A program made the position numbers and the translations under genes. The notes beneath the pieces were generated by a model. It was not told where the DNA came from and ran no database searches. It saw only the letters and a program-made list of their open reading frames with translations. Below are positions 25,998-54,811 of a DNA stretch of 64,000 bases, in pieces (within the stretch, counting starts at the first letter, position 1; each line of letters opens with the position of its first letter). The DNA is from a virus. Location: IMG/VR virus record IMGVR_UViG_3300042317_001497, one strand, 5' to 3'.

Positions 25998-26519
25998 TTA
26001 TGTAGTCCCGCAATTCTTACAACAGATAGATATTGTTTTTTCTGTTAGTGGAATATTACCAGATAATACAGTAAACTTAAAAATACTAATTGGATTATTA
26101 CCATTTATCTCTACGTCTATAGGAATAATAGCTTCTCTAAGAGCTACAGGATTAGAACCAGCCACGGAGGATCCTGTATAATTAGAGTATACCGGTGTTC
26201 TAACAGTAGTTGTTGAATCATTATTCGTTAGTTCTTGTATTTCAAAAGAATAAGTTGTTGGAGAAGGCTGTAATCCTCTGATTTTTACAGTTAGAACATC
26301 ACCATAACAACAAAAATCAGAAACATTATCGAACTCTATATCTGGTACTGCTATATAGCATACTTGTTGTCCTACAAACTCTACAATTGCTCCTGACACT
26401 AGTTTGGTATAAAGTTTACCAGTGACACTATTCATTACAAGTTCCCCTACTTCCAATTGATTAGAGGCTGGTGCAGAGGTTGATGTCTCGTCTCTTTTAG
26501 GTTTAAATTTCATGAACAA
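25998..26519 (-). CDS. Small fibre-associated protein
   Basis: N-terminus KFKPKRDETSTSAPASNQLEVGELVMNSVTGKLY matches the common tail-fibre N-terminal motif (KR...P...L..GEL..N...GKLY); Cys-terminated Ig-like C-terminus. Confidence 0.7.
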   Translation of the reverse strand: MFMKFKPKRDETSTSAPASNQLEVGELVMNSVTGKLYTKLVSGAIVEFVGQQVCYIAVPDIEFDNVSDFCCYGDVLTVKIRGLQPSPTTYSFEIQELTNNDSTTTVRTPVYSNYTGSSVAGSNPVALREAIIPIDVEINGNNPISIFKFTVLSGNIPLTEKTISICCKNCGTT

Positions 26520-29500: not shown

Positions 29501-31699
29501 AGTAGAGTATATTTTATCATTCTCTATCCATTCAGAAACATTATCTCCTTGATCATATGTTCCATAATAACTTTTTGTAATATCATCCCCAACAATCCTT
29601 AATACTCCTGTGGTGCTAGGATTATAGGATGTATATACTCCTTTAGAAGATGATGACTGATTAATATTTGCAAATACCTCTAGAGCTGGAATATTATCTA
29701 TCCCATAAACTAGAAAATTAATATCTTTATGCAGATTATTGAATACCGTATCTGTTTGGGGTCTGATGCTCAGAATATTTGCTGTTGAATCTGAAACATT
29801 GCCGCTTTTAACATATCTGGTATTTTTAAGATACCCGCCCTGAGTTATAGAATAGACCTTAACATTTGCTACAGTATTTACTGTGATATTACTATCTACT
29901 AAAATTGAAATAATATTATTATTTTCTATTTCGATGTCTTTTACTATTCTATAAAAAACATCAGTATCTGTTTCTATAGCAACTTGATCTCCTATAGCAA
30001 ATTCTTTTACAGGAATAGGGTCTATGGGGGCGATTTGTTTCAAACAGACATTTGCTGTTCTTGCGGGATACTGATTCCATGATAGTGATTTTTCAGTAAT
30101 AAAAAACTGTTCCGGAGTTAATGACCCAACTATTAATCCACTAGCACTTGTTGTTAGTATTCTACCAGAAGGAATAGATCCTATAGTAAAAGAAGAATCA
30201 TTTGTAGTTAAAACTCCTGAAGAATTTACCATCAATAACTTATTAGGAGAAATATTTGGTAATGAAAGTGTAGAGATAGAGCCTGAACCAATATTAATTT
30301 TAGTAGCATTGAAAATTCCGGTCATGCTAATATTATTAGTATTAATATTGATAGCATTATTAGTTACAGTAATATTATTATTAGAGTATCCTAAAACACT
30401 AGCTCCTTGATTATTAATTACCAGAGCATTGCCACTAGTATATCCAACAGTTACGGCATTAGGATTTGCTTGTAATACAGAAACTCCGGATCCTGAGCTA
30501 TCCACTAATAATTCAATTTGTCCTTTCGTAGAACCTTCTGTTAAAACCAGGGCTTTAGATTGTAATTTTCCATATTCTACTTTATTTCCCAAATTATTTT
30601 TAGCAGCAAGGGAAAGTGATGAAACAACCGAGTTGGCGTCGATAGAAGATGCTGGTTTATGATATAGAGTTATATTAGCAGGATAGCAAGAACTTCTATT
30701 TTCTAATCTTATACCCTCTTTACAATTATTATTAATTAGATGTAAAACTGTTTGAGGTGTGGCACCAGAAGGAATATTAAGACCAAGTTTACCATCATAT
30801 GTAAAAAATAAACTATTATTAAGTCCTGAGCCCTTAACTAAAAAGTTAGAATCTGTACCATCATTATTTATTATTGTTGGGGAATTGCCAGATGATGGTA
30901 TAATAGAATGTGCAGATGATGATGATGATGATCCAAATAGTAGTTGTCCGTTACTGGACCAATATACATCTGTACCATCTATGGTTCCATCATTATTAAA
31001 TTGTAATGAGCGGTCGTCTCCTGCTCCTTCTACACTGGATATTGTGTATGACCCGTCTGAAAGTCCCATAGCTTTTATGTTTGGTGCGTCTATTTGGTCT
31101 TTAAGTTCTACCCAATCTGTGCCAGTAGAAATAACTTGTGTAAATTTATCGCTACCTGTTAATGTTGTAAGAATTTCATTATTAGATTTTTTAATGATTA
31201 AGTCATTAGATCCAGAACCAACTGTTTTGAATTTAAGTTCTAATCCGGCACATTTTGAAGGATCTGGTAATGAGGCTTCTGAAGCATTATTACTAGTGTC
31301 CACAATATAAACACATCGAATAGAATCAGCAATAAAATTATTGTTTTTTAATACTACATTATTAAAGCCCGTATTAAAATTATATTCGTTTGCGAATATG
31401 TAAAAACTTTTGGTTCCGCCAGCTGAAAAATCAACAAGTTGATCATTATTAGAAGATTTTACAACCTGTACTCTTTCAACACATATAGAAGAATTTACTA
31501 CAACAACCTTACCTATACCAATCTCCCACAATACTTTGCTATTATTAACGTTACGAACCAGATATGGGATATGAGCATTAATATGGTCAATATTTAAAGA
31601 CTTATAACCAGGAAGGGAAGAGCCTATTAAAAACTTATCATTTTGATAAGAAAAATATGAACCGATATTATCAAATATATATATTGGTGAATTAATCAT
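26510..31699 (-). CDS. Tail fibre/adhesin with FGE-sulfatase-like domain and two C-terminal fibronectin type III domains
   Basis: N-terminal fibre motif WEIGIG...SSNN..LVDFSAG.K; FGE motifs at ~28820-29590; two FN3 units (PDSPT.L...LTWTSPADDGGSPITNY.IEYS and PGAPTNL...LSWNSPSNVGSSSVTGY) at ~26560-27190. Confidence 0.8.
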   Translation of the reverse strand: MINSPIYIFDNIGSYFSYQNDKFLIGSSLPGYKSLNIDHINAHIPYLVRNVNNSKVLWEIGIGKVVVVNSSICVERVQVVKSSNNDQLVDFSAGGTKSFYIFANEYNFNTGFNNVVLKNNNFIADSIRCVYIVDTSNNASEASLPDPSKCAGLELKFKTVGSGSNDLIIKKSNNEILTTLTGSDKFTQVISTGTDWVELKDQIDAPNIKAMGLSDGSYTISSVEGAGDDRSLQFNNDGTIDGTDVYWSSNGQLLFGSSSSSSAHSIIPSSGNSPTIINNDGTDSNFLVKGSGLNNSLFFTYDGKLGLNIPSGATPQTVLHLINNNCKEGIRLENRSSCYPANITLYHKPASSIDANSVVSSLSLAAKNNLGNKVEYGKLQSKALVLTEGSTKGQIELLVDSSGSGVSVLQANPNAVTVGYTSGNALVINNQGASVLGYSNNNITVTNNAININTNNISMTGIFNATKINIGSGSISTLSLPNISPNKLLMVNSSGVLTTNDSSFTIGSIPSGRILTTSASGLIVGSLTPEQFFITEKSLSWNQYPARTANVCLKQIAPIDPIPVKEFAIGDQVAIETDTDVFYRIVKDIEIENNNIISILVDSNITVNTVANVKVYSITQGGYLKNTRYVKSGNVSDSTANILSIRPQTDTVFNNLHKDINFLVYGIDNIPALEVFANINQSSSSKGVYTSYNPSTTGVLRIVGDDITKSYYGTYDQGDNVSEWIENDKIYSTDNIEYVAGGSWNSTNANEYKSIRAFPNNTENNKIGFRVRNNLDAAGSAYISNLLDLKFISVDDVNNPEDTSGLYDYTSSPELLTIPNLGSVPYSFGMTESEITNNQYCKFLNSVALSGDPYSLYNSNMASSGLLGGIARSGSGPYSYSTVSGMVYKPVVYVDYLSALRFINWIDQGAPSGSSYDPDLLNDGAYTISVEDSSVQKKRFQKYGLPSLNEWYKSAYYQPVETIPSVGHSAVTVKRNLPYSLSSGNYASLSVSGCVYSDSLKISNLIDADNKKVSLIKNSGILSIGPSIPLGGSTYTTTISTTGIILATSGAVLIKTPQPLNISGIIVDTLSVKNIINLKPDGNPVTNYPGGVFYSDENTGQTNTYQNLLIKAASDGSGIQIPDGSILSPLYLDSEKFIRQYEDIVLDPSGVEIKTSFKTASIQIGEDNPFFSGSILTHNGEGDALWQPATYLNADGVKWTRYLKRSVLVKNNEIVFTEGDLATLRKEFPYTDTIAVVNNETREISYVKAADGDFIIDGVGSVTPSTDTFYTTTDGLGMRFCPVIPWSTASGVSGVAFAVNRGGYLSMQLEPSAVGGFSCESDDDPNSPYKFKPSTLNTISIRPDTATTFNTLAERIDFAIYGHKPTQYNRYEENIFGKDSYGLPSGLIPAFKVDSHTSNAVSGSLISGVYLSGYSDIGKTLPIGFNKDESAKTCINTKTPYIINSIPSGSSTLALYADLTVNKYIYAEGLITQSIVLKQGVNTFVPNAPLTINASGYLVSQVPTAPASIPDSPTSLVGVEGNSSASLTWTSPADDGGSPITNYLIEYSANDGGTWTVYNKAPSTDTFANITGLTNGIDYYFRVSAINEIGNGAASEISNQVTPDTDVPGAPTNLQITRQNLQATLSWNSPSNVGSSSVTGYFIQRSSDGGNTWINATSEINNIVAASPKILTGLNNNSRYIFRIRAINSSGGGMYASIASIGTDPYNPPEPVDNNVWDFGKVSFTGVCS

Positions 31700-31792: not shown

Positions 31793-34700
31793 TTATGGTT
31801 TGCCTGCTGGTTTGGAAGGACTTCCTAACTCCACGGCCCCGTCGTTATTTTTTGTTATCACTTTTCTTAATTCGTCTATCTGTCTACCAACTTCTGCTAC
31901 TACGCTAGACGCTATAGTCTGCTCAATACTTTGTAATATACTAGCTCCTTCTTTAAGATTAATATTTACTTCATGAGTAGCACTAATATTAATGGTGGGA
32001 GGAATATCTATAGAAGATAATTGTTTAGTTAATGAATTTAAGCTAGAAACAAAGTCCCCCATTACCTTTTGTCCAAAATCAAATTTAATAGTTGATAATG
32101 ATTTTACATTTCGACTAAAACTCTTACTAAAAGAGCTTAGAACTGTAGAGGAAACAGAATCTAATCCTAGTAGGCTAGATATACCAGCAGATACAGCATT
32201 CCCTATGTTTAGTCCTCCTCTATCAAAGTACTTCGGCTGAACAACTACTCCTCCTGTACTATAATTACCACTATTAATACTTTTTAATAATGGAAGATTA
32301 TTCTGAGTAGCTCGTCTATTAACAACAAACTCTCCAGGGGTTAACATAGCAGGAACAGTATCGGTACCACGAGGAGCAAAGTTTACAAGTGTTCCATTAC
32401 TAGCATAAATAAGACCACCATTAGCTCTGGTCTGTGGTTTCTGAAATTCTGGCGCCTTTTGATCCCTGCTCTCTTTAGCTTTTTTCATCTCGTCTAATTT
32501 AATACGACTTGGTAAGAGTCCAAAAAATCCAGCAGTTAAATTTTGTAAACTTGTATTAGCTGTATTATAATTATCATCAAGATATTTATTATCATCTGGT
32601 GTAGGATCTTTTGATGATAAATATGAATCTTGAAAGAGATACCAATTTTTAAGTGCAGTTATATCAGTTTTAACTTTATCTAAATTTTTATTTTTATTAT
32701 CAGCAGGGAAAAATGATAATAATTGATCTATAAGACTTTGTCTAGCTTGTACGGGAAAAAAGCTATAGGGATTTAGAGATAGTGCTCCTAGCTCTCTTAT
32801 GCTTTTAGGAGTATCTTTATCTGTTAATTTTTTATATGTTATAATGCCAGTTTTGTTATCAACGGTGGCTGTTTCACCAGTGCCAACAGTATCTCGAATA
32901 GCCTTATCTACTGCTTTCTGTTCTGCTTCTGGAATTTTCTTATCCGCAGCCACCCCTTTCTCATTAGTCTCTGCTAAAATCATTTCTGCAGCTATTTTGC
33001 TTTTTCCAGCATTTTTTAACATTTGACCATAGGATTTAATTTTTTCAAAAAGTGGTGTGACATTTTTCACTTTCTCTAAATCAAATTCTCCAGCCCCTAA
33101 TATAGATCCTAGTTCTTTGGAAGGATCTGATAGGGATAGGGCTCCAATAAATTTCGATACTGCCCCAACATTTCCCCAGGCTGATCCTAACTGGTCATTA
33201 AGAAAATCTCCTTTATTATTGGTTATTCTTTTTCCAAATTCTTTTTGTAGTTTATTTAAGCCTTCTGAGTATGATTTAAATTGATTAGAACTATCAAGTT
33301 TAGTTAAACCAAAATTAGGAATAAATTTTTTGAATACTCCTATAGATGGTAGAATAATATTTTTAATTGCTTCATTGGCATAATCAAGATAAGATTTTCT
33401 AAGCCATGAAGCTTTTGCTTTTTTTCCTTTTCTATCCACACTGGTAGCAAGTTTAGCAGAAGGCTGGAGTGTTGTTTCTCCTCTCTGTTCCATCATTCTA
33501 TTTTTGGCATCTTCTAATTGCTGGAATAAGAAAATCTCTGGTTTGGGATCGGGAATTAACGTATATGCTTTACTTATATCTGATGGGTCTATACCTCCCT
33601 GTATTCCTTCTTCTTGTGTAAGAAGTCTTACTAAGTCTATATTATCTAATTTTAAAGGTTCTTTTGTATTATAGGATCCTGATAATAACTGTGCTATTAA
33701 TGCGGGGTCTTGTGATGTAAATAGTTGCTGTTTAGCCTCTAAAAATGGATTTAGTAGAGGAGCTTCTTTGGATGAGGATAATAAGAATCCATCTAGAAAT
33801 TCATCTGTTGGCGGAATATATCCTTTTTCTTCTGTTAACTTGGGTATCTTTATTTTTTGAGTATTAAATTTGCCTTCATATTTTTCTGATCCTATAGCTA
33901 CTTCGAAAGCATGAGATGTTACTGCTTCATCCAATTGAAAAAGACTTTCTCTTTTCTTGTTTTTTTCTTCTATATCAGATACAATATCTTTGATACGATC
34001 AAGATCTATTGGCTTATTACTCCAATTAAAAGACTGCGCAGTACTATCCTTAACTATATTTAGCTTATTACTATCGCTAGAAAATACATGATCTTTATTA
34101 TCTTTATAAGAATCAACAATTCTATTCCACTTATCATTAAATTGTTTTCTATATATATAAGCAAAATCAGTAATTTTCCCGTAATCTCCCCAGCTTGATG
34201 ATAATTGATTTTTAGGAATAGAAACAAATAAACCACTTAAGTTATCGTCGTACAATGATTCTAATAAAGTATTCATTTTATTATTAGAAGCTTTACTGCT
34301 ATTAATAATAGTAAAATTATTAATATTTTCATATTGATTTTTTAACTCTTCGAAATATTTTAATCTTTCCTTTATATATTTTTGTTTACTCTCAACATCA
34401 GTACCTTTTGCTGTGTTCTCAAGAACACCAGGGCGCAAAATGTCTGTATTAGCTGCTCCTAATTGTTTTCTACCTTTTAGATCCGTTCCCATGAAAGAGG
34501 TAGTTTTTTGAACAGTTGTTAAAGCATTACCATTACCGGTAACTAATCCTTGAGGCTTGGAGTTTGTCCATTGTGCATTATAATATTTATCTTTTACTGG
34601 TTTGGTTGTAATAAATAGTGATCTTTCTAGTATTTTGTCCAGAGACTGTTTATTGCCGTTTTTATATTCTCTATCCCCTGTGTATTTGTCTTCTGCTGAA

Positions 34701-37700
34701 AGTATTTTTTTACCAAGTGTATCGTCATTATTTATCGTAGAGCCGGCCAATTTAGTTACTAAAGTATTCAATAGATCAAGCTGTGTTTGTTTAGATAGAA
34801 ATGAGCTATCTGGATCCTCAATCTTATAGTTTTTAAAATCTTTACCCCCTGTGGTATTATTACTTATTCTATACTTTTTACTATGAGTTTCTAATGCATT
34901 AGTCTGCTGTATTGCCTGATAAGGTAATAAAATATTAGCTAATTCTTCTTCTCTGCTCATACCAACGCCTGTAGTATTATATTTTTCAAATGTTGGCAGA
35001 TTACTTCCCTCCATAACGGTTCCCCAAAGGTATCCTTTTTTTTCTTCTCTATCAATACCGATAGCAATAGGATTAGATGCTCCTAACTCCCAATTGTCCG
35101 GTGTTAGATCAAAAGAGGTGTTAAAAGTCTTTAGATATCTTCTAATCTCATTAATGCCCAGACCATCAGTTTTGGCTTTAAATGCTTCTTTGTCTAATTT
35201 AGCAATAATAGGTCCTGTAAAATCTTGGTCAGTATTATATGATCCATAAACAGTTGCTGGAGTACCGTATAAACGAGAAACCTCATCTGTTTTGGTTAGA
35301 ATATTTTTAACTAAATTCTCCGATAAAACAGGATATTCTTCTTTGGTTAGTCGTACGTCATCAGTAGCAGTCGCTGATTCGGATAGGATACTTTTTCCGG
35401 CTGAAGCCCCAGACCCAGAATCTCTAACATCAACCATGCCTCCAGAAGCATAATATTTGACAGCTCCTCCTGAACTATAGCTATTGATACTCTTCAGTAA
35501 TGGCAGATTTCTTTGAGTAGCACTCCTATTAACAACAAATTCTCCAGGAGTCAACATTGCTGGTACAGTATCTGTTCCTTTTGGTTGAAAAATATTCCCC
35601 CCAACTGATTTATATACTACTCCTCCCGTAGCCATTGTTGGTACTTTATTTATACCCTTTTGTTCATCAGAAGTTTGCATCTGACTAAAATTAAGAGGAG
35701 TATTTTTTATAGCAGCAGCTACAGCGTCTGCCGTACTCCTTGCGATATTCCCGGCCAAATCAGTATTAATTTTAGCCAACTGAATATTAGCCTCTGATTG
35801 TGTTGTAATTGCTTCTCGATAAGTATCTGTAGCAGCTTTCATCTCAGGATCAGCTTCTGGATTTCTTAAAGAGCCTAGTACTTGATCAATAAAAGGATTG
35901 CTTTGTATACCAGATTCTTGTAATTGAGATTGTAAAATATTAGCTTTAACTCCTCCTTGTTTATCTCCTAAAAATGGCATAATCATATTAAGAACATCTA
36001 ATGATTCTTTTCTCTGATCAGCACTAGTGCCAAAATTAGCTTTTCCTTGCATATTATTGGTGAGTCTATTAAATGCTTGATTAAGATTATTAAGTTCACC
36101 AGGAGTGCTAGTCACCAATCTTTCAACAATAGATACTCCAGCTGCTTGCTTTGCTTGTATTTTACTAACTTGATCTAATGCAGCAGATGCTAAATCTCCA
36201 TTCTGTGCTAGTTGCTCTAATGCTGCGACGTTCTCTCTAATAGCGCTATTAGTTTTTACCAAACCATCACTGAAAGCTAGAACTCCTCCCATATCAGTAG
36301 AAGCTTTAGCCTGATCTAGTCCTGTTTGTTGTTGATTTCTTTGTGTTTCTAGATTTTGAATATTTCTTCTAATAGCAGAAGGGTCAGTGGCTCCGCCGGT
36401 GAAACTTCTTGTTTGATTATTGAAATCTGTTTTAGTATCAGATAATTTTATGTCTTTGCCTAATGCTCTATCTAAATTTCTTGTGCCTGTTACTAAAATA
36501 TTTTGAGCATTTCTAAGCCTACTATTGTTTTGTACTTGTATATCTGTTATCTGATTAGTAGCGTCAGATAGTTGATCAAAAGAATTCTTTATAAATTCTA
36601 AGGCCCTGATTGCTGAATCTGAGGCTCCTTTAAGACTCTCTATACTATTAGCTAGTGCTGGTATTTCCTCCATTAGCTGAGAAAAGTCAAGCTTCTCGTC
36701 TCCTCTAGTTCTCATCTTACTAACAGCGGCTTGTACTTGTCCTGTTAATTTATTGGCCAGATCTGGTGGAAAGTTCAAACTCTTTAATTTATCTTTAACA
36801 GCAGATTCTACTTTGGCTCCAATTTCTTCATTATTAGCTCCACCATTGGCTTGTAACGTACTATTAATAGTTGACATTAAAGTGTCTTCAATATTTGCTC
36901 CCAAATTCAACATTTTTTCCATATTACCAGATTGTGCTCCAAATACTGATGAGGCTCCCTTCATAGCAGTAGATCTTTGAGAGTCAGAATAACCTCTTGG
37001 ATTTTTTAATACATCTATCATACTCTGTATTTCACTAGATTTGCCAACTTTGGCATTGCCACTAGCAGAAGCGGCACTTAATTCTAGTTTTTCTGATAAA
37101 GATTGTAATGAATTAGATGATGCTGCTATAGCAATATCCATATTATTGAACATTCTTTTTAAACTAAAACTAAAGTTTCTAGCTGATTTACCAAGAGCTT
37201 CTATTGCCATTTGAGTCTCAGTTGTTTTAATAGCTTTCATGGCAGCAGCATTTCCATATGCAGCTATGATATTTTCTCTTCTGGCTCTTTTGTCCTGTTC
37301 ACTTAATCTTGTGTCTGCTTGTATAAGTTGTAATTGTTTTTCTGCTTCTGGATTTGATCTTGCTAAAATCTCTGCTTGTTTAGCAAATTCTGGTGATGAT
37401 GTTATACTCGCTGACGATTCTCCAGAACGAGTTCTTTGTTCAAAAGCTTTCTTAATATTATCAGCTGGTATAGCAAAGCTTTTAGATATATCGTTTGCCA
37501 TGTCAGGAATAAGATCACGAATATTTGATAGTTCTGTATCTTTATCTCCAGCAGATGCCAAATAGGCAAATATGCCTTTTTTGTCTAGAATTTGAGATCT
37601 ATTAATAGCTCCTTGAGCATCATTATTATCTGTAGCTCCTTCTAATGATCCTAGTAATGCTCCCAAATTACTATTTCCAACTATATCTTGTACAAAACTA

Positions 37701-40700
37701 CCTTTTTTGGTTCCGCTCTTTTCGGCAAATGTTAAAGCGGCTGAGGTGCTAGAATCTAGAGCCGTTTTAAGTTGCTCAAGGGCAGCTGGTGTTGCGGCGC
37801 CTGCGTTGCTAATTTCTGTTAAAATATTAGATATTTTTTCGCTACTCTGTTCCATTTGTTTTGCTGCTTTATTTTTTCCAAACTCATTAACAGCATTCTC
37901 AGCAGTTACAAAGGCTGTTGCTATACCAGCCGCAGCGGTTCCTAATCCTGCAATAATTCCTATTGGTCCTCCCATAGTAGCCATTGCTAAAGCTCCTCCA
38001 ACAGCGTTTGAAGATTGTTCAACAAAAGAATTATTAGAAGCTTGAGTCTCTGTTTGGGCTTCTTGAGTACCAAACATTTGAGCGGCCATAGGTATTCCCA
38101 TGCTTAGTCCATACATACCCATACCACCTCCCATACCTCCTCCTCCTCTACCCCCTCTTCCTCCTCCCCCTCCACCAAAACCTCTAGCTCTTCTACCGCT
38201 AGCATCTCTGGTAACACCATCTGCTCCCATAGTAGCAGCAGCACTTCTCCATCCTTGTTTACCCCCTCCAATATCTACTTTCTTTAATCCCATTAAACGA
38301 CCAGCAGCAGAATCTACTCCTTTGATTAATCCAAAAAAGGAGTTTTTAGTCAGAGAACCCACATCTGACATAACTTTCTTAAAACCTCCCATAAATGTTC
38401 CGGCATTTTTTATACTAGAACTCCATGAGGCTACTGCCATTCCTCCTTTATTAAGAGAAGAAGATAATTGTGAGGCTCCTAAATGCAATTTTGACATGCC
38501 ACTACTAACTTTAGCTGCTCCGGATACCAATGGAGACATAGCTTTATTAAATACTGATAGCAGAGCAGATCCGGATGTTCCTCCTTGAGCTAAATTACTA
38601 GCTCTGGCTTTAAGCTTGTCTGCTCCTGCTTCGTACTGCATAGATCTTATACGGTTGCCTCTTTCAGAGCCTGCTACGGCTCCTCCAACAGCTCCAATAA
38701 CTCCTCCTAGCGGAGCCCCAGCTAATCCACCGATAGCTCCACCAGCCGCAAAACCAGCCCACCCACCTATGGTGGCTCCTTGAAACATACCGAATCTATC
38801 ATCCGCTCTGTTCTGCTTTTTCCTGGCTAGTCTTTGCTCAGGAGTGGTAGATCTTTTCTCAGGAGTGGCAGCTTTCTCTATTGTCATACCAGAAACAGTA
38901 GCACCAACTCCCGTCCGACCTACCATAGTCATAGAATCCTTGCCGCTCTGAACAGCGGCTCTAAATGCTTGGTTTGCATCCCCGGTTTGTCTAACCTGTG
39001 TATTAAAAACTAGAAGTGCTTTTTCTGTAGCTTCAGTAGTAAAGCCTAATCTATTAAATCTAGCAGTAATTTTTGGGGCTATCCTATCTAAAGTAGCTTG
39101 AACATCACCGGGCCCATTGACTTTAAGCGGCTGGCCTTTACTGTTACTTAGTCCCGTTATTTGTTTAAAATCTCCTGTTCTACCAACCGTCCCGGCATTT
39201 CTAGTATCTGGTGTTCCTCCTAAAATATTTGGACCTCTAGCTTTGGATGGTTGTCTAGCAGCACTAGTAGTACCAGCAACCATGCTTTGTGCTAAAGCAT
39301 CTGCTTGAGACACACCTTTTTCTAAAGAGCGATCTAATCTTTTCATCGCCATTCCAACATCTTCAACTTTCCAGCCAGAAACTAATTTAGCTAATTGTTC
39401 AAAAGCTTGAGAGTTTTTTTGTATACTAGCTCTTAATCTAATAGCGTCTTTATTAGACATTCCAGATAATGCATTATCTATCTCTCCGCCAACAGCTAAT
39501 TTCTGTACGGATCCCCCTTTATTATATCTAACTATGCCTCCGGTATGATACTTTGGCAAGTTATCTAGTCCTACCCTGCCTCCAATATTTAGTTTATCTA
39601 GATTGTGGCGTCCTATCTGATTAGCCGATGTTCTATTTATAACATATTCACCCTCTTGGGCTAATATTGGTATGTCTCCACCTTTGGCTTTTTTGATAAA
39701 TTTTGTACCAACATTTTCTTGGTTCCATGTGGATATAGTAGGAGCCTCTTGTAGTTCTTTAAAAAAGCCGGAATATCTCCCGCTTTTTCTATTTTTCCTT
39801 ATCCTATTTAGTTGTTCTTCATTTAAATCATCAGCAACTATTCTACCATCTTCTACTAATTGGTATTTACCAGGATATACTTTGGAGCTACCCACATGAG
39901 TTGGTTTTTGATTAGGGCCGAGCTGTACTCTTTGACCTAGTGTTTTTGGTTTTACAGACCCCCCTACTGCATATCCCTTTAATAATTCTTCATAATTAGG
40001 CTTACTAATAGCTGATGAACTAGAATCTTTTAATCGTTCTGCTAAGTCTATTGCTTTATTGCTAGTTGGAGTTTGTGCTCCTAGAAAAGCTGCTAATTTT
40101 TTAGGATCAAATCGTTTATCTTTAGAAGATCTGCTAAGGTCCATAGGAGATGGAATTGATCCACCAAGTGCTTTTCTGGTTGCTTTTTTCTTTTTTGCTT
40201 GTTCTATATCTCTTTTATATCTTGTCGCTTGAATTAATTTTGATCTGGCAGTACTAGTATCACGAGTAGCATCAACCATAGCCCTGGGATCTATGCCTAC
40301 TAGCTTTGAGATTTCTGGACCCAAACCTTTTGGAAAGTCTAAGGCTTGTTTTTTAGGATTGTATGGTGCTCCTGCTGCTGCAAGCCCAGCTTCTAATCCA
40401 TATCCCTCAACATCTGGTAATATTTTTCCTACAATATCTCTAATACGTTTTTTATCTGTTACTGATTGACTGCCTGCTGATTTGCCTATTATTTTTCCTA
40501 GTCTAAGTGTAAGCTGTTCCATACTTCGTCTAATAACTGCTCTGACTCTTTTTGAATCTCTTTCAGGCAATACTCCTGTCTCTAATGTAGCAGGAAAGCC
40601 CTTAGTGGTTTTTTCTCCCCTTTTCTTTCTTCCTTTAACATCCGGAGTAACAACTTCTTCTGATGTTGGCTTATAATCGCCAGCGGAATTAAATAATCCA

Positions 40701-43700
40701 ACAACACCTATTTTTCTTTTCTTAGCTCTGGTTGAAGTTTTTTCTTCTTCAGCCTTTCTAATAATTCTTTGGTCTTCTAGTTCTTTTATGACTTTGGCTC
40801 TAATTTCTTCTGATCCTTTTGCTCTTTGGTCTAATAATCGACGAGAATCCATAGGAATAAAAACTCCTAATTTTTCCGCTTCTCTTAACAGGTCTGCTTT
40901 ACCCATATCGCTCAAAGACTTGATGGGTTTATCTGTGCCTTCGGCAAATCTTTGTCTTCGTTGCTCTAGTCTAGATAGCATCTTTGATGGAAATCTACCC
41001 AATTTAGTAGATAAAGAGTCTCTTTCTTTTCTTAAGAGACCTATCTTCTCTGCGTCCTCTAGTGGAGTAGTCTTGGTAACTCTAGCAGGAAGTTCTGATA
41101 GTTGTGCTTGAATTTTAGATAATCTTCCAGCAGTTCCTTTTCCAGATGAGCTATTAGCTTGAATCTTAGCCAAGATACTATCTAGTAGTTTTGGTCTTTT
41201 TTGTAGTGTGTCCATGTGTTTCTGAACATAGTCAAAACCTTCTGGGGTCAATAATTTTTTAAGTGATGCTGTGTCATTAGCCATTATAGCATCTCTGGCT
41301 TTGGTACCGCTAATTCCACCTAATCTGGGAGTAACAAAAGGAGCATATCCTGCTCTTGTATATTTATCTAAATCTTTTGGATTCTTCTCATCTCCGACTA
41401 TTGCAACATTACCTTTCGCTTTAGGTACAATATAGTCATCGTCTCCTACCTTAAAAGCAGAAGGGATGCTTCCAGGGCCACTACCGCTTGGCATAGCAGA
41501 CACATTGGTTCCTGTGGCTCCAAATACAGCTTTCGCCATACCCATTCTTGACGGTTTGTCGTCTGGACCTTTTAGTGGCATAAACGCAGATCTTTTATCG
41601 TGAGGATCTTTACTAAAAGGATCTATAGGAACATCACCACTAAGCAAGGCGACAGAATCTTTTGTTGGTATACCTGTCTTTTTTGATGCTGCTGAGATAG
41701 CTGCTGGATATCCGGCATGAACAGGTCCCATATTACCATAAAATAAAAGTGTTTTATCTGGCGTTCTAACATTGGGTTGATTAGTCCGAGTTTTCTTAAA
41801 GTTTTCTTCTAATTTAAGTGTTGCTACTTTTTTAGGGTCAACTCCAGATACCTCACTAGCAGCAATATACGCCTCGCCTACTCCACTATCTAAAGGAGCA
41901 CTCTTGGTGGCTCCGGCTTTTCTACCAAAAAGATTTTTACCAGTAGAGTCTCTAAGCTTTCTATTTTTCTTTAGAACCTCCTGAGACTCTTTAGTTCTAG
42001 AAGATAAAGCAATAACTCTATCAGCAGAGCTTAAAGCATTTCTTTGAGATGGTCCAGCAACAGAGGTGGTGTCTACTACCTGGTCAGATTTAAGAAGATC
42101 CGCTTCTGTTAATATAGGATATCTTGTAGTTTTTCTTAGTTTAGCATTATCTACTTCTTGTCCTCTAGCTCCTCCTTGAGCCATAGTACTTTTGGTAGAT
42201 CCTGCAACACCAAATATATTGGTTAATCTTTTTAGATCTCCTGATTGGCGACGAGATGCTGCAAGATTAGATAGGTGGTCTTTAAACTCTGCCACCCCTT
42301 TGATCCCTAGTCTTTTCATTTCTGCATCAATGATTGGGCCTTTAATAGGATCTTTTAGCAATCCAGATATCTCATCACTATCTATATATCCTACGCTTCT
42401 TGTTGCTGATCCTCCTTTGCCAAACTTTTGAACAATACCACCTATAGCATATGGCATCATGCTAATAGCGTTTTCTAAAGCATTATCATAGTATCTATCA
42501 GCTCTACGTTTAGCATTTCTCTTCTTTTTGTTTTTTTGTTCTTTTATTTTTAGTTTAGTTTTCAATAATCTATCTACTTCTACTCCTGAAATTTTAGAAA
42601 CTATAGCAGAATCCATTGGGGATAGTGATACTACTCCAACAGAAACGGGTTTCTTAGGAAGTCTATTAGAAGCCATGTCATTTGCTATTTTATTAGCAAT
42701 ATTGGATTTCAGAGCAGCATTTGCAGCTGCTGTTCTTTTAACATCAGTAGATATATCAGGTGGCATACCACTAAAAATAGGAGATAAAGCTGACCCTATA
42801 CCTCTTGGAAAATCAAAAGCTTGATTATTATCTTTTTTATCTTTTGACCGACCACTAATTTTTAATAAAGCTGTCTCGAATAATCCTCCATAAATACTTT
42901 CTTTATTTTGAATATTAATATTACCGGTTGGTATAGTTATATTTCCTTGTGTTTTATCAACAATAGCTTTAGAGAGATCGTTTACTCCTTGGTTTAGGTA
43001 CCCCTTTAATATTGCTTCTTCATTGATTTTTTGCTTCGTACCTTTTCTATTTAATCCTCTGATAATAAAAGGAAAATCCGTTTTAAATCTTCCTTTTCTA
43101 TCGTATGTTGTAGATTCTATTTTTTCTACAGCCTGTCCTACTGTACTCTTAGTTTTAGACGGTCTCCCTCTGCCAGATCGTACCTGTGCTCTCACCTCTC
43201 TCCACGAACCATTTTCAAATTTTTGTACATCTCCGCCAAATGCATGATTTCTAGCAGCATCCATTACTCCATCTGGTCCCCCAAGAGATCTTGTAGCATC
43301 TGTTCTTATAACAAAACTTCCTTCTGGTAATTGAGTATAAAAACTATCTGTGCGACCAGACCCAGGAACCTCAGCATATCCTCCTTTAGAAAATTTAGAG
43401 ACTCTTCCTCCTCTTCTTTTGCCCGCTATTCCATTTTTATCCGCATGATTTAATTGTCTTAATCTAGATACTCCAATCCTACTAACAGCATCAGGATATA
43501 CTACAGTTTCTCCCGGCATTAATGCAACATCCACATCCACAGGCCCGCCAGCAGCATATCTATTGATGGGTCCACCACTAGCTCGTCTTCTACCAGTAGA
43601 GCCTTGTCTCATAGCTCCTACGAATCCTAATCCAAATTGTGTAGCAGCCTGTGCTCCCTTAAATGCTAAAAGCATACCTAATACCGGCAACACACCCTTA

Positions 43701-45145
43701 GCACCATCGGCTAATTTAATAAGACCACTTGCAAGACCAAGCGCTCCTTTAGTTAAAAGCTGAAAACTATCAGAGCCCCCGATATCTCTAAATAAAGCTA
43801 AAAATTCTTCTCTTACTTTGGATATTTGATTTGCTAAAGATAATTGTGCTTTAATAGAATCCTCAGCCAAAGAACCTTGTCCTTGTTGAGCTACTGCTAA
43901 AGCTTCTTGTGCAGTGCCGAATTGCTGAATAAGGGGAATAACTTTGCCTATCTGACGAAAACCACCAAGCTCCTCAACGATCTGAGAAAACTTTAAATCT
44001 CTAGGATCTATGCTACTCAAACCTTTGGATAGTAGTTCAATAGCTTTGTAAGCTCCAACAAATTTACCCTGAGCATCAGTAAGATTAACATTGAACTCTT
44101 TCAACGCTTCAATAGTACTGCCTCTCTGGATACGAGTAAAGATAGTTCTTAAGCCAGTAGCAATAGTTTCTGCACTTTCACGAGTGGTGGCTCGAACACT
44201 AGTAAATACAGCAATAAATTCATTTAAAGCCTGTTTACCTTCACTTACTCCTCTACTAGCAGCAGCAAACACACCACCAGTACGCTGAATAGCAGCAATA
44301 ATATCACTAGATTCTACTGCAAATTTTGCTGCAACAGAATTTATAGAGCCTAATGAAGCCTCTAAATCTTTGGCACTAATATCAAACTGTCTCATTAAAG
44401 CAATAGAACCTTCTACCGTTCTATTCATATCATCAAAAGACGGAGCTAATGAGCTTAGAGCCAAAGCCTTAAGTGCTCTTTCAGTATCTCTAGCACTCAA
44501 TCCTGCCTGAGCCAAAGTAGACGAAATCTTTGTTAACTCTCCAGAAGAAACTCCTAAGTTTGTTGATAAGCCCGTAATCTCTTTTTCCAAACCCTTCAAA
44601 GATTCTGCGGATCCTCCGGTAACCTGTTGTAGTTTAACCAGTTCTTGATTATAATCTACATAAGCAGAAATACCTCCTTTAATAGCATTGGTTAATGCAA
44701 AAACACCTCCTGTTACTATACTAAATGCAGCAAATCTTCTAATAGCTAGATAAGATTGTCTACCGAACTCTGCCATTTCTGAATGAGCCATCTGAATTTG
44801 TCTAGAAGTATTAGAAGTGGCTCTAGATAAATTATTAGTAGTATTTACAGCAGCATTAAGCTGTTGTGTGGTTCTACCTACAGCATTGGTATTAAATGCT
44901 TGAGCAAAATTAGCAATTGCTGATGCTGCGGCATTTGCTGATGTTTGTGTCTGGGCTAATGTGGTATTTAATGTTACCAATGAAGCATTAAGTCTTCCAA
45001 CTCCGGTAACGGCGTTTGGATTAACTGTTAAATTAACAGTGCTATTGATAGTACCAAGCTGTCTACGAATATTAGAAACTATATTTCCAATATTAGATGG
45101 TCCTCTAAGATTTAGCTGTGCGGTTAAATTAAAAGCTGATGACAT
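31793..45145 (-). CDS. Tape measure protein with inserted cargo domains (4450 aa)
   Basis: Ala/Ser/Gly-rich helical N-terminus with a TP901-type TMP core (ELVKLQQVTG...LAQAGLSA...LIQQF); position after tail tube and chaperone-like genes; repeated A.GG...TDTVPAMLTPGEFVVN modules typical of TMP C-termini. Confidence 0.9.
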   Translation of the reverse strand: MSSAFNLTAQLNLRGPSNIGNIVSNIRRQLGTINSTVNLTVNPNAVTGVGRLNASLVTLNTTLAQTQTSANAAASAIANFAQAFNTNAVGRTTQQLNAAVNTTNNLSRATSNTSRQIQMAHSEMAEFGRQSYLAIRRFAAFSIVTGGVFALTNAIKGGISAYVDYNQELVKLQQVTGGSAESLKGLEKEITGLSTNLGVSSGELTKISSTLAQAGLSARDTERALKALALSSLAPSFDDMNRTVEGSIALMRQFDISAKDLEASLGSINSVAAKFAVESSDIIAAIQRTGGVFAAASRGVSEGKQALNEFIAVFTSVRATTRESAETIATGLRTIFTRIQRGSTIEALKEFNVNLTDAQGKFVGAYKAIELLSKGLSSIDPRDLKFSQIVEELGGFRQIGKVIPLIQQFGTAQEALAVAQQGQGSLAEDSIKAQLSLANQISKVREEFLALFRDIGGSDSFQLLTKGALGLASGLIKLADGAKGVLPVLGMLLAFKGAQAATQFGLGFVGAMRQGSTGRRRASGGPINRYAAGGPVDVDVALMPGETVVYPDAVSRIGVSRLRQLNHADKNGIAGKRRGGRVSKFSKGGYAEVPGSGRTDSFYTQLPEGSFVIRTDATRSLGGPDGVMDAARNHAFGGDVQKFENGSWREVRAQVRSGRGRPSKTKSTVGQAVEKIESTTYDRKGRFKTDFPFIIRGLNRKGTKQKINEEAILKGYLNQGVNDLSKAIVDKTQGNITIPTGNINIQNKESIYGGLFETALLKISGRSKDKKDNNQAFDFPRGIGSALSPIFSGMPPDISTDVKRTAAANAALKSNIANKIANDMASNRLPKKPVSVGVVSLSPMDSAIVSKISGVEVDRLLKTKLKIKEQKNKKKRNAKRRADRYYDNALENAISMMPYAIGGIVQKFGKGGSATRSVGYIDSDEISGLLKDPIKGPIIDAEMKRLGIKGVAEFKDHLSNLAASRRQSGDLKRLTNIFGVAGSTKSTMAQGGARGQEVDNAKLRKTTRYPILTEADLLKSDQVVDTTSVAGPSQRNALSSADRVIALSSRTKESQEVLKKNRKLRDSTGKNLFGRKAGATKSAPLDSGVGEAYIAASEVSGVDPKKVATLKLEENFKKTRTNQPNVRTPDKTLLFYGNMGPVHAGYPAAISAASKKTGIPTKDSVALLSGDVPIDPFSKDPHDKRSAFMPLKGPDDKPSRMGMAKAVFGATGTNVSAMPSGSGPGSIPSAFKVGDDDYIVPKAKGNVAIVGDEKNPKDLDKYTRAGYAPFVTPRLGGISGTKARDAIMANDTASLKKLLTPEGFDYVQKHMDTLQKRPKLLDSILAKIQANSSSGKGTAGRLSKIQAQLSELPARVTKTTPLEDAEKIGLLRKERDSLSTKLGRFPSKMLSRLEQRRQRFAEGTDKPIKSLSDMGKADLLREAEKLGVFIPMDSRRLLDQRAKGSEEIRAKVIKELEDQRIIRKAEEEKTSTRAKKRKIGVVGLFNSAGDYKPTSEEVVTPDVKGRKKRGEKTTKGFPATLETGVLPERDSKRVRAVIRRSMEQLTLRLGKIIGKSAGSQSVTDKKRIRDIVGKILPDVEGYGLEAGLAAAGAPYNPKKQALDFPKGLGPEISKLVGIDPRAMVDATRDTSTARSKLIQATRYKRDIEQAKKKKATRKALGGSIPSPMDLSRSSKDKRFDPKKLAAFLGAQTPTSNKAIDLAERLKDSSSSAISKPNYEELLKGYAVGGSVKPKTLGQRVQLGPNQKPTHVGSSKVYPGKYQLVEDGRIVADDLNEEQLNRIRKNRKSGRYSGFFKELQEAPTISTWNQENVGTKFIKKAKGGDIPILAQEGEYVINRTSANQIGRHNLDKLNIGGRVGLDNLPKYHTGGIVRYNKGGSVQKLAVGGEIDNALSGMSNKDAIRLRASIQKNSQAFEQLAKLVSGWKVEDVGMAMKRLDRSLEKGVSQADALAQSMVAGTTSAARQPSKARGPNILGGTPDTRNAGTVGRTGDFKQITGLSNSKGQPLKVNGPGDVQATLDRIAPKITARFNRLGFTTEATEKALLVFNTQVRQTGDANQAFRAAVQSGKDSMTMVGRTGVGATVSGMTIEKAATPEKRSTTPEQRLARKKQNRADDRFGMFQGATIGGWAGFAAGGAIGGLAGAPLGGVIGAVGGAVAGSERGNRIRSMQYEAGADKLKARASNLAQGGTSGSALLSVFNKAMSPLVSGAAKVSSGMSKLHLGASQLSSSLNKGGMAVASWSSSIKNAGTFMGGFKKVMSDVGSLTKNSFFGLIKGVDSAAGRLMGLKKVDIGGGKQGWRSAAATMGADGVTRDASGRRARGFGGGGGGRGGRGGGGMGGGMGMYGLSMGIPMAAQMFGTQEAQTETQASNNSFVEQSSNAVGGALAMATMGGPIGIIAGLGTAAAGIATAFVTAENAVNEFGKNKAAKQMEQSSEKISNILTEISNAGAATPAALEQLKTALDSSTSAALTFAEKSGTKKGSFVQDIVGNSNLGALLGSLEGATDNNDAQGAINRSQILDKKGIFAYLASAGDKDTELSNIRDLIPDMANDISKSFAIPADNIKKAFEQRTRSGESSASITSSPEFAKQAEILARSNPEAEKQLQLIQADTRLSEQDKRARRENIIAAYGNAAAMKAIKTTETQMAIEALGKSARNFSFSLKRMFNNMDIAIAASSNSLQSLSEKLELSAASASGNAKVGKSSEIQSMIDVLKNPRGYSDSQRSTAMKGASSVFGAQSGNMEKMLNLGANIEDTLMSTINSTLQANGGANNEEIGAKVESAVKDKLKSLNFPPDLANKLTGQVQAAVSKMRTRGDEKLDFSQLMEEIPALANSIESLKGASDSAIRALEFIKNSFDQLSDATNQITDIQVQNNSRLRNAQNILVTGTRNLDRALGKDIKLSDTKTDFNNQTRSFTGGATDPSAIRRNIQNLETQRNQQQTGLDQAKASTDMGGVLAFSDGLVKTNSAIRENVAALEQLAQNGDLASAALDQVSKIQAKQAAGVSIVERLVTSTPGELNNLNQAFNRLTNNMQGKANFGTSADQRKESLDVLNMIMPFLGDKQGGVKANILQSQLQESGIQSNPFIDQVLGSLRNPEADPEMKAATDTYREAITTQSEANIQLAKINTDLAGNIARSTADAVAAAIKNTPLNFSQMQTSDEQKGINKVPTMATGGVVYKSVGGNIFQPKGTDTVPAMLTPGEFVVNRSATQRNLPLLKSINSYSSGGAVKYYASGGMVDVRDSGSGASAGKSILSESATATDDVRLTKEEYPVLSENLVKNILTKTDEVSRLYGTPATVYGSYNTDQDFTGPIIAKLDKEAFKAKTDGLGINEIRRYLKTFNTSFDLTPDNWELGASNPIAIGIDREEKKGYLWGTVMEGSNLPTFEKYNTTGVGMSREEELANILLPYQAIQQTNALETHSKKYRISNNTTGGKDFKNYKIEDPDSSFLSKQTQLDLLNTLVTKLAGSTINNDDTLGKKILSAEDKYTGDREYKNGNKQSLDKILERSLFITTKPVKDKYYNAQWTNSKPQGLVTGNGNALTTVQKTTSFMGTDLKGRKQLGAANTDILRPGVLENTAKGTDVESKQKYIKERLKYFEELKNQYENINNFTIINSSKASNNKMNTLLESLYDDNLSGLFVSIPKNQLSSSWGDYGKITDFAYIYRKQFNDKWNRIVDSYKDNKDHVFSSDSNKLNIVKDSTAQSFNWSNKPIDLDRIKDIVSDIEEKNKKRESLFQLDEAVTSHAFEVAIGSEKYEGKFNTQKIKIPKLTEEKGYIPPTDEFLDGFLLSSSKEAPLLNPFLEAKQQLFTSQDPALIAQLLSGSYNTKEPLKLDNIDLVRLLTQEEGIQGGIDPSDISKAYTLIPDPKPEIFLFQQLEDAKNRMMEQRGETTLQPSAKLATSVDRKGKKAKASWLRKSYLDYANEAIKNIILPSIGVFKKFIPNFGLTKLDSSNQFKSYSEGLNKLQKEFGKRITNNKGDFLNDQLGSAWGNVGAVSKFIGALSLSDPSKELGSILGAGEFDLEKVKNVTPLFEKIKSYGQMLKNAGKSKIAAEMILAETNEKGVAADKKIPEAEQKAVDKAIRDTVGTGETATVDNKTGIITYKKLTDKDTPKSIRELGALSLNPYSFFPVQARQSLIDQLLSFFPADNKNKNLDKVKTDITALKNWYLFQDSYLSSKDPTPDDNKYLDDNYNTANTSLQNLTAGFFGLLPSRIKLDEMKKAKESRDQKAPEFQKPQTRANGGLIYASNGTLVNFAPRGTDTVPAMLTPGEFVVNRRATQNNLPLLKSINSGNYSTGGVVVQPKYFDRGGLNIGNAVSAGISSLLGLDSVSSTVLSSFSKSFSRNVKSLSTIKFDFGQKVMGDFVSSLNSLTKQLSSIDIPPTINISATHEVNINLKEGASILQSIEQTIASSVVAEVGRQIDELRKVITKNNDGAVELGSPSKPAGKP

Positions 45146-53170: not shown

Positions 53171-54811
53171 TTAGACCGTTACGGTCCACCCCTTTGCTGT
53201 GGCGATTGATGGTGTATGCGATGCCGTTCCCCAGTTGCCGGTGACCGTGATGGTCTTCCCGCTGCCGGTCGCGGACAGTCCCGTATAGATGGCGTTGAGC
53301 GCGGCCGGAGACAACTTGCACGCTGCGTAGCTGATGTTCTGATTTGTTCCAGACAGCGGAGCAGCGGATAGCGACGAGCAGCCGCTGAACATTCCCGAGA
53401 AATTGCCCGAAGTAACAGCGGAAGTGTTCAAAGCCGGGGCGTTTACCAGAGAGATGCAACTGGAGAACATGCTCTGCATATTAGCGACGGCTGCTGTGTT
53501 GAAAAGCGGTACTGACTGAAGCGCGGTGCAACCCGTGAACATATTCACTGTACTTAGAGCCGCTGCTGTATTGAAAAGCGGAACCGTGGTAAGCGCGGTG
53601 CAACTAGAAAAAAAGTTCAGAAAAGTAGTAACGGCTGCTGTGTTGAAAAGAGGAACAGTGGTAAGGGCTTCGCAAAGCCGAAACATGGTACTCATGTTTG
53701 TGACCGACGCTGTGTTGAATAGCGGAACGCTGGTGAGTGCGCGGCACTCGTTAAACATATCGGACATATTTGTGACAAGAGCCGTATTGAAAAGAGGCAC
53801 AGTAGTTAACTGCGCACAAGCGAAAAACATACTGCTCATGTTTGTGGCCGCTGCCGTGTTGAAAAACGGCACTGACTGAAGCGCGGTGCAGCCGTTGAAC
53901 ATACTGCTCATGTTTTGGCAGGCCGCCATATTGAAAAGCGGCACTGACTGAAGCGAGCTACAGCCGCTGAACATTGAACTCATGTTCGTGACCGCTGCTG
54001 TATTGAGAAGCGGCACATACTGGAGACTTCTACAGCCCGAGAACATACTGAACATGGCCGTTGCCGATACTGTGTTGAAGAGAGGTATCGATCTCAGCGA
54101 GCGGCAATCAGCGAACATAGCGCCCATGCTTGTGACCGATGCCGTATTGAATTGTGGAACTATCTGAAGCGTGCGGCAGGCTTGGAACATATTGCTCATG
54201 TTCGTCACGCTGCCGGTTGAAAACAGCGGCACGGACTGAAGCACCAAGCAGTTTTGAAATTGGCTCGCCATACTGGTGAGGTTGTGCTGGCCGATTGTGA
54301 CTTGCTGGAGATACGGCATCGCAAGGCTGGCGCTGCCAATCGTGAGCGATGTCAGGCTTTGGCCGTTCACGGCAATGTCCAGCCATCCGGCGTAATAAGC
54401 GCTGTTGAGGCCGCTTTGGTTGTGGCGGGATTGCAAATTTAGCGATGTCAGGTTTGCCGCTCCTTGCGGATAGACCTGAATGACGACTTGGCGATATCCC
54501 AGCGTCGATTCGCCCGCGCTGCTAATCGTGGCGTAATCGTACTGCTTGTAGGCGGTCGTTCCGGTTGCGTGGTTCGTCGTGGTGCCGTCGCCCCAATCGA
54601 CCGTGTACGCGGCAGCCGCAGAGAGCGCGACGAAATTGCTTTCGGGGTCAATGCGATACAGACCCGCGAATCGCTGCTGGCCGGTAACGTCTGGCAGGGC
54701 GAGCCAATCGGCAGGTCGTACCCATGTTGTTAGGTTTGATGTGACAGCCGTGGCTGATCGCAAATTGCGATTGCTTGCCAACCGCGGCCGTGATTCAGTT
54801 GTAATAGCCAT
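53171..54811 (-). CDS. BspA/DUF285-type leucine-rich-repeat surface/receptor-binding protein
   Basis: 546 aa; about 12 tandem 24-aa units L.SVPLFNTAAVTNMSSMF..C.. after a W.RPADWL.LP N-terminal motif. Confidence 0.85.
   Translation of the reverse strand: MAITTESRPRLASNRNLRSATAVTSNLTTWVRPADWLALPDVTGQQRFAGLYRIDPESNFVALSAAAAYTVDWGDGTTTNHATGTTAYKQYDYATISSAGESTLGYRQVVIQVYPQGAANLTSLNLQSRHNQSGLNSAYYAGWLDIAVNGQSLTSLTIGSASLAMPYLQQVTIGQHNLTSMASQFQNCLVLQSVPLFSTGSVTNMSNMFQACRTLQIVPQFNTASVTSMGAMFADCRSLRSIPLFNTVSATAMFSMFSGCRSLQYVPLLNTAAVTNMSSMFSGCSSLQSVPLFNMAACQNMSSMFNGCTALQSVPFFNTAAATNMSSMFFACAQLTTVPLFNTALVTNMSDMFNECRALTSVPLFNTASVTNMSTMFRLCEALTTVPLFNTAAVTTFLNFFSSCTALTTVPLFNTAAALSTVNMFTGCTALQSVPLFNTAAVANMQSMFSSCISLVNAPALNTSAVTSGNFSGMFSGCSSLSAAPLSGTNQNISYAACKLSPAALNAIYTGLSATGSGKTITVTGNWGTASHTPSIATAKGWTVTV
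53372..54241 (-). repeat. 72-bp coding tandem repeat (~12 units)
   Basis: Recurrent + strand GTGTTGAAAAGCGG...ACATACTGCTCATGTT blocks with 72-nt period. Confidence 0.9.

Follow-up and report, generated by a model that had tools for sequence, protein, structure and literature searches.

The 64,000-nucleotide stretch of viral DNA analyzed here (IMG/VR record IMGVR_UViG_3300042317_001497; the whole stretch is called the window below) encodes a giant tail tape measure protein (TMP), in the middle of which lies a cassette that joins a P-loop kinase-like domain to a HIGH-type Rossmann nucleotidyltransferase. The cassette is conserved in many other giant TMPs, where the ATP-binding signatures of both domains are nearly always kept. 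In the window copy both signatures are broken, and the cassette, though not the N-terminal domain of the same TMP, shows an evolutionary rate some 2.8 times that in sister lineages. Judged from its sequence, this copy is probably an inactive former enzyme. An earlier note, made from the DNA letters, had placed a P-loop domain followed by a HIGH-family nucleotidyltransferase inside the TMP at 41200-42240, and this arrangement is borne out by the predicted fold, by a family profile and by conservation in the family.

The whole of 41200-42240 falls within a single open reading frame (ORF) of 4450 codons (Table 1). The N-terminal domain and the tail gene order identify this ORF as a bona fide phage tail TMP: residues 188-393 match PF10145 PhageMin_Tail with 80.4 bits (cutoff 33.2), residues 51-506 match the TMP family phrog_28 with an E-value of 5e-30, and the gene lies downstream of small tail genes in an order that is the same in relatives. 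The window is AT-rich (GC about 33%) and contains giant fibre-like genes with FGE-sulfatase, LRR, fn3, DUF285 and Mtd_N domains. Because of these genes, and because an identical TMP is recorded on three contigs, the longest of 196,971 nt, the source is a large uncultured tailed phage and its sequence is reproducible. A search for related loci returned close relatives only, three among viral contigs and four among metagenome contigs.

The distribution of the cassette was determined by an exhaustive phmmer search with TMP residues 950-1330 as the query against 1.84 billion representative proteins. Matches were found in 87 protein clusters, 56 of them below an E-value of 1e-30. Nearly all of the matching proteins are 2000-7000 residues long and align over the whole 381 residues of the query, the short matches being contig-end fragments. 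The only name given to any of them is 'tape measure protein', borne among others by an NCBI entry from a metagenome-assembled genome binned to Sphingobacteriia. The carriers are essentially all giant TMPs or fragments of them. A stand-alone form of 196-671 residues was not found, the search yielding only a contig fragment in that range; a tblastn search of 50,697 phage records with the cassette as query gave no match, nor did a search of PHROGs, and no description of the cassette was found in the literature on tape measure proteins with adenylyl- or cytidylyltransferases.

When residues 800-1600 were compared by phmmer with 89 family proteins, coverage was at least 0.75 from about residue 900 to 1400 and dropped to 0.1-0.2 outside these limits. 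Such a sharply bounded block between variable flanks marks the cassette as a discrete module in the variable middle region of the TMP. The motifs that the earlier note had listed were all recovered in frame in the one ORF, the positions it gave being essentially right (the Walker A stretch starts at 42179 rather than 42182); the Walker A and HIGH motifs are 157 residues apart. The parts of the cassette and the positions of its motifs are collected in Table 1.

Table 1. Coordinates of the tape measure protein, its cassette and the cassette motifs (aa, residues of the tape measure protein)
Feature	aa	Position in window	Strand	Basis
Tape measure protein ORF		31793-45145	minus	single ORF, 4450 aa, contains the cassette
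Conserved cassette, ~500 aa	~900-1400	40946-42448	minus	common to the family, flanks variable
N-terminal extension of cassette (SVGYID...)	917-949	42299-42397	minus	consensus block RxVGYIDxDVLxDPxN directly after GG linker
P-loop kinase-like domain	950-1127	41765-42298	minus	model pLDDT 90.0; structural neighbours; invariant residues
NIFGVAGSTKSTMA (Walker-A-like)	976-989	42179-42220	minus	in frame
Degenerate Walker A, GVAGSTKST	979-987	42185-42211	minus	family GVAGSGKST
HIGH-family Rossmann nucleotidyltransferase and C-terminal helices (predicted)	1128-1330	41156-41764	minus	fold, family profile
LLFYGNMGPVHAGY (HIGH-motif stretch)	1133-1146	41708-41749	minus	in frame
Degenerate HIGH motif, GNMGPVHAGY	1137-1146	41708-41737	minus	nearest relatives GNFGPTTAGH
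VAIVGDEK		41384-41407	minus	in frame
DLDKY		41360-41374	minus	in frame
GISGTKARDAI	1277-1287	41285-41317	minus	in frame
ISGTKAR motif	1278-1284	41294-41314	minus	retained ISxTxxR signature
LKKLLTP		41243-41263	minus	in frame
Helical C-terminal extension of cassette	1331-1400	40946-41155	minus	family coverage 0.75-0.96; conserved block after LQNR

A structural model of residues 950-1330 was built with AlphaFold2 from an alignment of 38 homologues and had a mean pLDDT of 92.1 and a pTM of 0.89. Both the Rossmann HIGH fold and the P-loop fold anticipated by the earlier note are present in it, and the motifs are conserved among homologs. The C-terminal half (model residues about 180-367) is confirmed by the model as a HIGH-type Rossmann nucleotidyltransferase that is closest to NadD, NMNAT and PPAT. 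Foldseek against the PDB gave 22 matches to this half at E-values of 1e-3 or lower, all in the same superfamily and with a probability of 1.0. VIA-align placed NadD (4rpi) first, with a Z score of 14.4 (root mean square deviation (rmsd) 2.6 over 155 residues), followed by NadM (13.6), NMNAT (13.5) and PPAT (13.4). A lower tier consisted of TmcAL (10.1), NadR (about 10), ATP sulfurylase (7-9) and cytidylyltransferases (about 8). The BFVD collection also contains many phage proteins labelled 'cytidyltransferase-like' with the same fold.

Sequence profiles pointed in the same direction. A family profile made from a compact set of 14 sequences and searched against PDB sequences matched MJ0951 (E 4e-8), Bas30_86 (9X6F, 357 residues; 4e-5), TagD (5e-4) and the NMNAT MJ0541 (1e-3), with L. 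lactis NadR at 0.037 and PPAT at 0.2. The match to Bas30_86 spans the whole of its NMNAT domain (profile positions 180-330). In these alignments ISGTKAR is paired with RLEGISGTKIREAI of MJ0951 and with the same motif of TagD; within the family no variation is seen at S330 and R335 and almost none at T332 (fragment numbering, here and below). The window copy itself matches PF16581 over residues 1273-1313 at an E-value of 2e-4. Of the 14 members of the set, 12 match PF16581 and eight match Pfam CTP_transf_like (PF01467) at E-values up to 1, and one homologue (P0064) passes the CTP_transf_like cutoff of 21 with 26.6 bits. The window copy has no CTP_transf_like match at all. It also belongs to no NCBIfam family, its relatives giving sub-threshold matches only (for TIGR01526, 14.6 bits where the cutoff is 341, hence no equivalog), and a single-sequence phmmer search of the cassette against the PDB gave no match.

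The N-terminal half, which had a pLDDT of 90.0 when modelled alone, is interpreted as a divergent P-loop kinase of small size. Its best VIA-align neighbours were zeta toxin (6epg, Z 7.1, rmsd 3.6 over 138 residues, covering residues 1-176), UMP kinase (7.0) and adenylate kinase (6.8), with PNK (6.3), DPCK (6.0), AvrRxo1 (5.4) and human NRK1 (5.1) further down. Nearly all of the top 50 neighbours are P-loop proteins, mostly kinases, together with sulfotransferases and a few GTPases; the RNK domain of NadR is not among these 50. Foldseek of this half alone gave nothing below an E-value of 1e-3, and neither the window copy nor the members tested matched Pfam Zeta_toxin or CoaE. K36, R59, D67, D93 and R126 are invariant in the family.

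The state of the motifs was surveyed in 90 family members, made up of 73 aligned full-length segments and 17 further relatives from a 90%-clustered collection. Motif columns are 88-100% conserved across the 73 segments, and all but two lineages among the 90 members keep both GxxxxGK[ST] and TxGH. In the 73-segment alignment, 38 columns are at least 88% conserved and the window copy deviates at four of them: Y5F, G35T, T194H and H197Y. Of the 73 segments, 72 have Gly35, which precedes the Walker A lysine, and 72 have His197, the window copy being the single exception in both cases; the threonine of TxGH is found in 68. All 17 further relatives are canonical at both motifs, as are the nearest relatives (59-76% identity), which keep GVAGSGKST and GNFGPTTxGH. 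The threonine for glycine in Walker A and the tyrosine for the last histidine of the HIGH motif, both remarked on in the earlier note, are therefore real, and they are accompanied by a third change, a histidine where the family has threonine. When treated as a member of its class, the window copy departs from GxxxxGK[ST] and from (H/T)xGH and retains ISxTxxR. It also retains K36, S/T37-38, R59, D67, D93, R126, G188, P192, G196, S330, T332 and R335.

The HIGH motif carries the changes F to M, T to V, T to H and H to Y, plus a G to L change three residues upstream, all at positions that are invariant in the four nearest relatives. The codon changes in the two motifs (GGT to ACC, TTY to ATG, ACN to GTT, ACN to CAT and CAT to TAT) mostly involve two nucleotides; at the Walker A position the window has ACC and the relatives GGT, GGG or GGA. 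Since several nucleotides per codon are changed and the identical protein is recorded on three contigs, sequencing error can be excluded.

Rates of evolution were compared by a Tajima-type relative-rate test with five outgroup sequences, in which the window was set against three sister lineages. Lineage-specific changes in the cassette numbered 36 in the window against 13 in the sister, 46 against 16 and 44 against 16 (p 0.0014 to 0.0002), whereas in the N-terminal domain of the same proteins the counts were 20 against 19, 24 against 22 and 22 against 21. The difference in asymmetry between cassette and N-terminal domain gave Fisher p values of 0.02-0.045, and a control pair (P0002/P0003) showed no rate asymmetry. 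Pairwise dN/dS of the cassette is about 0.13, with dS saturated; together with the high pLDDT, this indicates that the fold is still under constraint and is not drifting freely. In one other, unrelated lineage (P0010/P0011, with about 47% identity to the cassette of the window) Walker A reads AVAAAGKT and TxGH has become TPAH. Both motifs have thus been altered jointly in two independent lineages, which suggests that the two domains work as one coupled unit.

The closest known systems are enzymes that combine the same two kinds of domain. Bas30_86 (9X6F/9X6H), a phage enzyme that resembles NadR and joins NMNAT to RNK, belongs to NARP3, a pathway that restores NAD+ (PMC13464706). Like NadR and Bas30_86, the cassette has a P-loop kinase and an NMNAT-type (T/H)xGH nucleotidyltransferase in one polypeptide, and Bas30_86 shares with the cassette family both the T-x-G-H form of the motif (GKFAPLTRGH) and a phage origin. 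The order of domains is reversed, however, NMNAT then RNK in these enzymes and kinase then nucleotidyltransferase in the cassette. The structures of NadR reach a Z score of only about 10 against 14 for NadD, and the cassette forms part of a virion structural protein instead of a separate early enzyme; a PnuC partner was not observed. A further difference is that the ATP-binding glycine and histidine are missing from the window copy. The likeness to NadR proposed in the earlier note thus holds for the nucleotidyltransferase, where the family profile matches Bas30_86, but the domain order does not agree, and RNK is one of several candidates for the kinase.

Taken singly, the two halves have other relatives. 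NadD, archaeal and eukaryotic NMNAT, NadM and PPAT (CoaD) align with Z scores of 12.5-14.4 (rmsd 2.6-3.2 over 146-175 residues) and share the GxFxPx(T/H)xGH and ISxTxxR signatures, but they are single-domain, free cytoplasmic enzymes with 10-18% identity to the cassette and no equivalog match. Zeta toxin and the small P-loop kinases (adenylate kinase, UMP kinase, PNK and DPCK) share fold class and Walker A with the N-terminal half, almost the whole of which is covered by zeta toxin; here the Z scores are middling and no sequence family is matched, and the substrate-binding elements do not appear comparable. PAPS synthase has the kinase-first order (APS kinase, then ATP sulfurylase) with a HIGH-like Rossmann nucleotidyltransferase second, and 1x6v aligns over both domains with a Z score of 6.7 but an rmsd of 19.7. 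Its ATP sulfurylase domain (Z 7-9) has another motif type, and the domain orientation is not shared. To our knowledge, the domains embedded in TMPs are otherwise cell-wall hydrolases. A parallel from outside the tail is offered by the polyvalent proteins (Iyer et al. 2017, PMC5512222), in which a virion protein that should reach the host together with the DNA or before it bears enzyme modules; related cassette-bearing TMPs likewise carry ART-like, HHH and other modules. That paper describes zeta-like kinases in injected proteins and mentions neither tape measures nor HIGH-type nucleotidyltransferases.

We consider it rather likely that the family is an active two-step enzyme borne on the TMP and that the window copy is a catalytically dead but folded remnant of it. 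Catalysis in the family would be under selection, because both ATP-binding signatures are kept over identities down to about 30%. The family cassette would phosphorylate and then adenylylate a small molecule, following the logic of NadR and Bas30_86. From what is understood of TMP biology, it would be carried in the virion within the TMP and released into the host as the TMP exits the tail ahead of the DNA. In the window phage the Walker A glycine (GSTKST) and the catalytic histidine (HAGY) have been lost, with faster evolution since; because of these losses and the roughly 2.8-fold acceleration the copy is most likely inactive. Its retention may reflect its place, folded and in frame, within a structural protein that the phage cannot do without or, conceivably, a use in ligand binding. 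The interpretation in the earlier note is partly supported. That the motif substitutions leave this copy non-catalytic was the second of its two options, and for the window copy it is now the better supported one, the substitutions being unique in the family, affecting both ATP sites and coinciding with a rate acceleration that is specific to the cassette; roles in NAD+ metabolism, in decoy binding of NAD derivatives or cyclic nucleotides and in counter-defence are speculative.

Several points weigh against this interpretation. NAD+ is the leading guess for the substrate, a weakly supported one: by E-value the profile prefers the NadR-type NMNAT, but NMNAT, NadD and PPAT match equally well in structure, and the form TxGH is typical of PPAT. 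For the kinase half, NRK (Z 5.1) does no better than many other kinases, and zeta toxin resembles it as much as any nucleoside kinase does. The kinase assignment rests on fold class and Walker A, since a Z score of about 7 is middling and Foldseek is empty below an E-value of 1e-3. The loss of activity is a prediction, threonine for glycine in the P-loop and tyrosine for histidine in (T/H)xGH being expected from mutant studies in other families to be strongly damaging. The simultaneous T to H change gives H-x-G-Y and might compensate in part, and the retention of 34 of the 38 conserved columns together with the low dN/dS means that some function may have been kept. Finally, a virion contains few TMP copies, as estimated from other tailed phages, so that a metabolite pool would be rebuilt only slowly; activity of unassembled TMP late in infection, or action on a scarce target, is possible.

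The alternative that fares best is that the cassette is not an NAD+ enzyme at all. It could instead make or modify some other nucleotide-linked compound, for instance in a PPAT/DPCK-like step of CoA synthesis; or a zeta-toxin/AvrRxo1-like kinase could phosphorylate a nucleotide-sugar or dinucleotide on which the nucleotidyltransferase also acts, the cassette then being an injected, toxin-like effector and not a salvage enzyme. PPAT ties NMNAT in structure (13.4 against 13.5) and shares the TxGH motif with the family; zeta toxin is the top neighbour of the kinase half (Z 7.1), with DPCK (6.0) and AvrRxo1 (5.4) also represented; and zeta-like kinases occur in virion-delivered polyvalent proteins (PMC5512222). 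Against this, the profile prefers the NadR-type NMNAT (4e-5) to PPAT (0.2), neither Zeta_toxin nor CoaE is matched in Pfam, and the kinase Z scores all lie within 2 units and hence do not discriminate. We regard this as a minority reading that deserves to be kept in mind.

Less probable, in our judgement, is that the window copy is still active by way of variant motifs, with the histidine and the tyrosine hydroxyl of H-A-G-Y and a Thr-tolerant P-loop serving in catalysis, the specificity or regulation altered and the rate acceleration adaptive. The other conserved residues listed above (K36 to R335) are all in place, the model is confident, dN/dS is about 0.13, and the T to H change creates the canonical first histidine of HxGH. 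At the positions that changed, however, 72 of 73 members and all 17 of the additional relatives keep the family residue, both ATP sites were hit together, as in the independently degenerate P0010/P0011, and no CTP_transf_like match is detectable in this copy.

A more elaborate form of the interpretation that we favour would have giant TMPs deliver, at the very start of infection, a working kinase-adenylyltransferase that rebuilds or alters, for example, a pyridine-nucleotide or other nucleotide cofactor or signal before phage gene expression. The joint loss in two independent lineages would reflect an obligate coupling of the two activities, and the window copy would be a dead nucleotide-binding pseudoenzyme or decoy and not simply filler; so specific a scheme is improbable. 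Still harder to sustain is the view that nucleic acid is the target, with a PNK-like or DNA-base kinase and an adenylyltransferase that modify DNA or RNA at its ends or bases, whether in the incoming genome or in the host. PNK structures (4gp6, Z 6.3; 3zvl, Z 5.7) and the Trl1 kinase (5.6) are among the neighbours of the kinase half, one member weakly matches Ploopntkinase3 (E 0.004), an HHH_3 domain (26.9 bits) and, more weakly, an SNase-like stretch were detected in other TMPs of the family, and TmcAL, a HIGH nucleotidyltransferase that acts on tRNA, reaches a Z score of 10.1. The best nucleotidyltransferase matches, however, are small-molecule adenylyltransferases, ahead by 3-4 Z units, and no nucleic-acid-binding domain lies inside the conserved boundaries of the cassette, the neighbouring modules being variable. 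That the motifs are a chance resemblance in a non-globular TMP segment, as might be thought from the window copy alone, which falls below every curated Pfam and NCBIfam threshold, is refuted by the pLDDT of 92, the Z score of 14.4 to NadD, profile E-values down to 4e-8 and the retention of the motifs in 87 clusters.

Related TMPs carry further modules near the cassette. An ART-like module (PF03496, 22.7 bits, cutoff 23.4) was found at residues 1088-1201 of P0039 and is present in some 12 of the clusters that were looked at, in many cases immediately upstream of the cassette; STS and ExE-like motifs are present in it and the first arginine is apparently replaced. The window TMP lacks this module and modules are shuffled among relatives, and we gave it little weight. 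A possible link from this module to NAD+ was rejected as too weak to count, as the query had included the GG linker and most of the matches were linker matches. Other cargo-like modules of related TMPs, noted in P0082 (residues 2701-2751), P0063 (702-792) and P0009, are an HHH_3 domain close upstream of the cassette (26.9 bits, cutoff 27), the weak SNase-like stretch, which lies elsewhere in the protein, and, in P0009, EF-hand matches in Pfam.

Two internal repeats were seen in the window TMP. A weak one (residues 775-812 and 1600-1637, at 42710-42823 and 40235-40348; 38% identity, E 0.004), with DFPRG/DFPKG, brackets the cassette region on both sides. The other is a duplicated 100-residue module (residues 3157-3254 and 4224-4325, at 35384-35677 and 32171-32476) that is 56% identical between copies (E 3e-26) and contains TDTVPAMLTPGEFVVN; weaker copies lie near residues 483-538 and 1817-1890. 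Elsewhere in the window, 16212-21983 and 26510-31699 encode giant fibre-like proteins with FGE-sulfatase-like, BspA-LRR, sortilin-Vps10 and fn3 domains, and the DUF285 repeat protein (248 bits) encoded at 53171-54811 lies where the GC content is locally raised, to 41-45% from about 33%. The adjacent proteins encoded at 55138-56166 and 56185-57591 each begin with Mtd_N (major tropism determinant; E 3e-8 and 4e-13), which hints at receptor-binding proteins of the diversity-generating-retroelement type.

The pairing of these two enzymes is known; what is new here is its structural context, which is undescribed, and, in the window copy, the degeneration of both motifs, in a form unique among the 90 members, together with its rate signature. 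That some 90 clusters of giant TMPs carry a conserved two-enzyme nucleotide cassette of cytoplasmic type points to the middle of the TMP as a carrier of effector cargo, a role that would extend the idea of polyvalent proteins to tails. The finding also connects the cassette to the conflict over NAD+ between phages and host defences (NARP1-3). The joint hit on both ATP sites and the acceleration confined to the cassette are evidence that the domains function as one unit. The window copy is predicted to be a natural loss-of-function allele, and as such a ready negative control for biochemistry; it would show that the cassette can persist as a folded segment of the TMP after catalysis has been lost.

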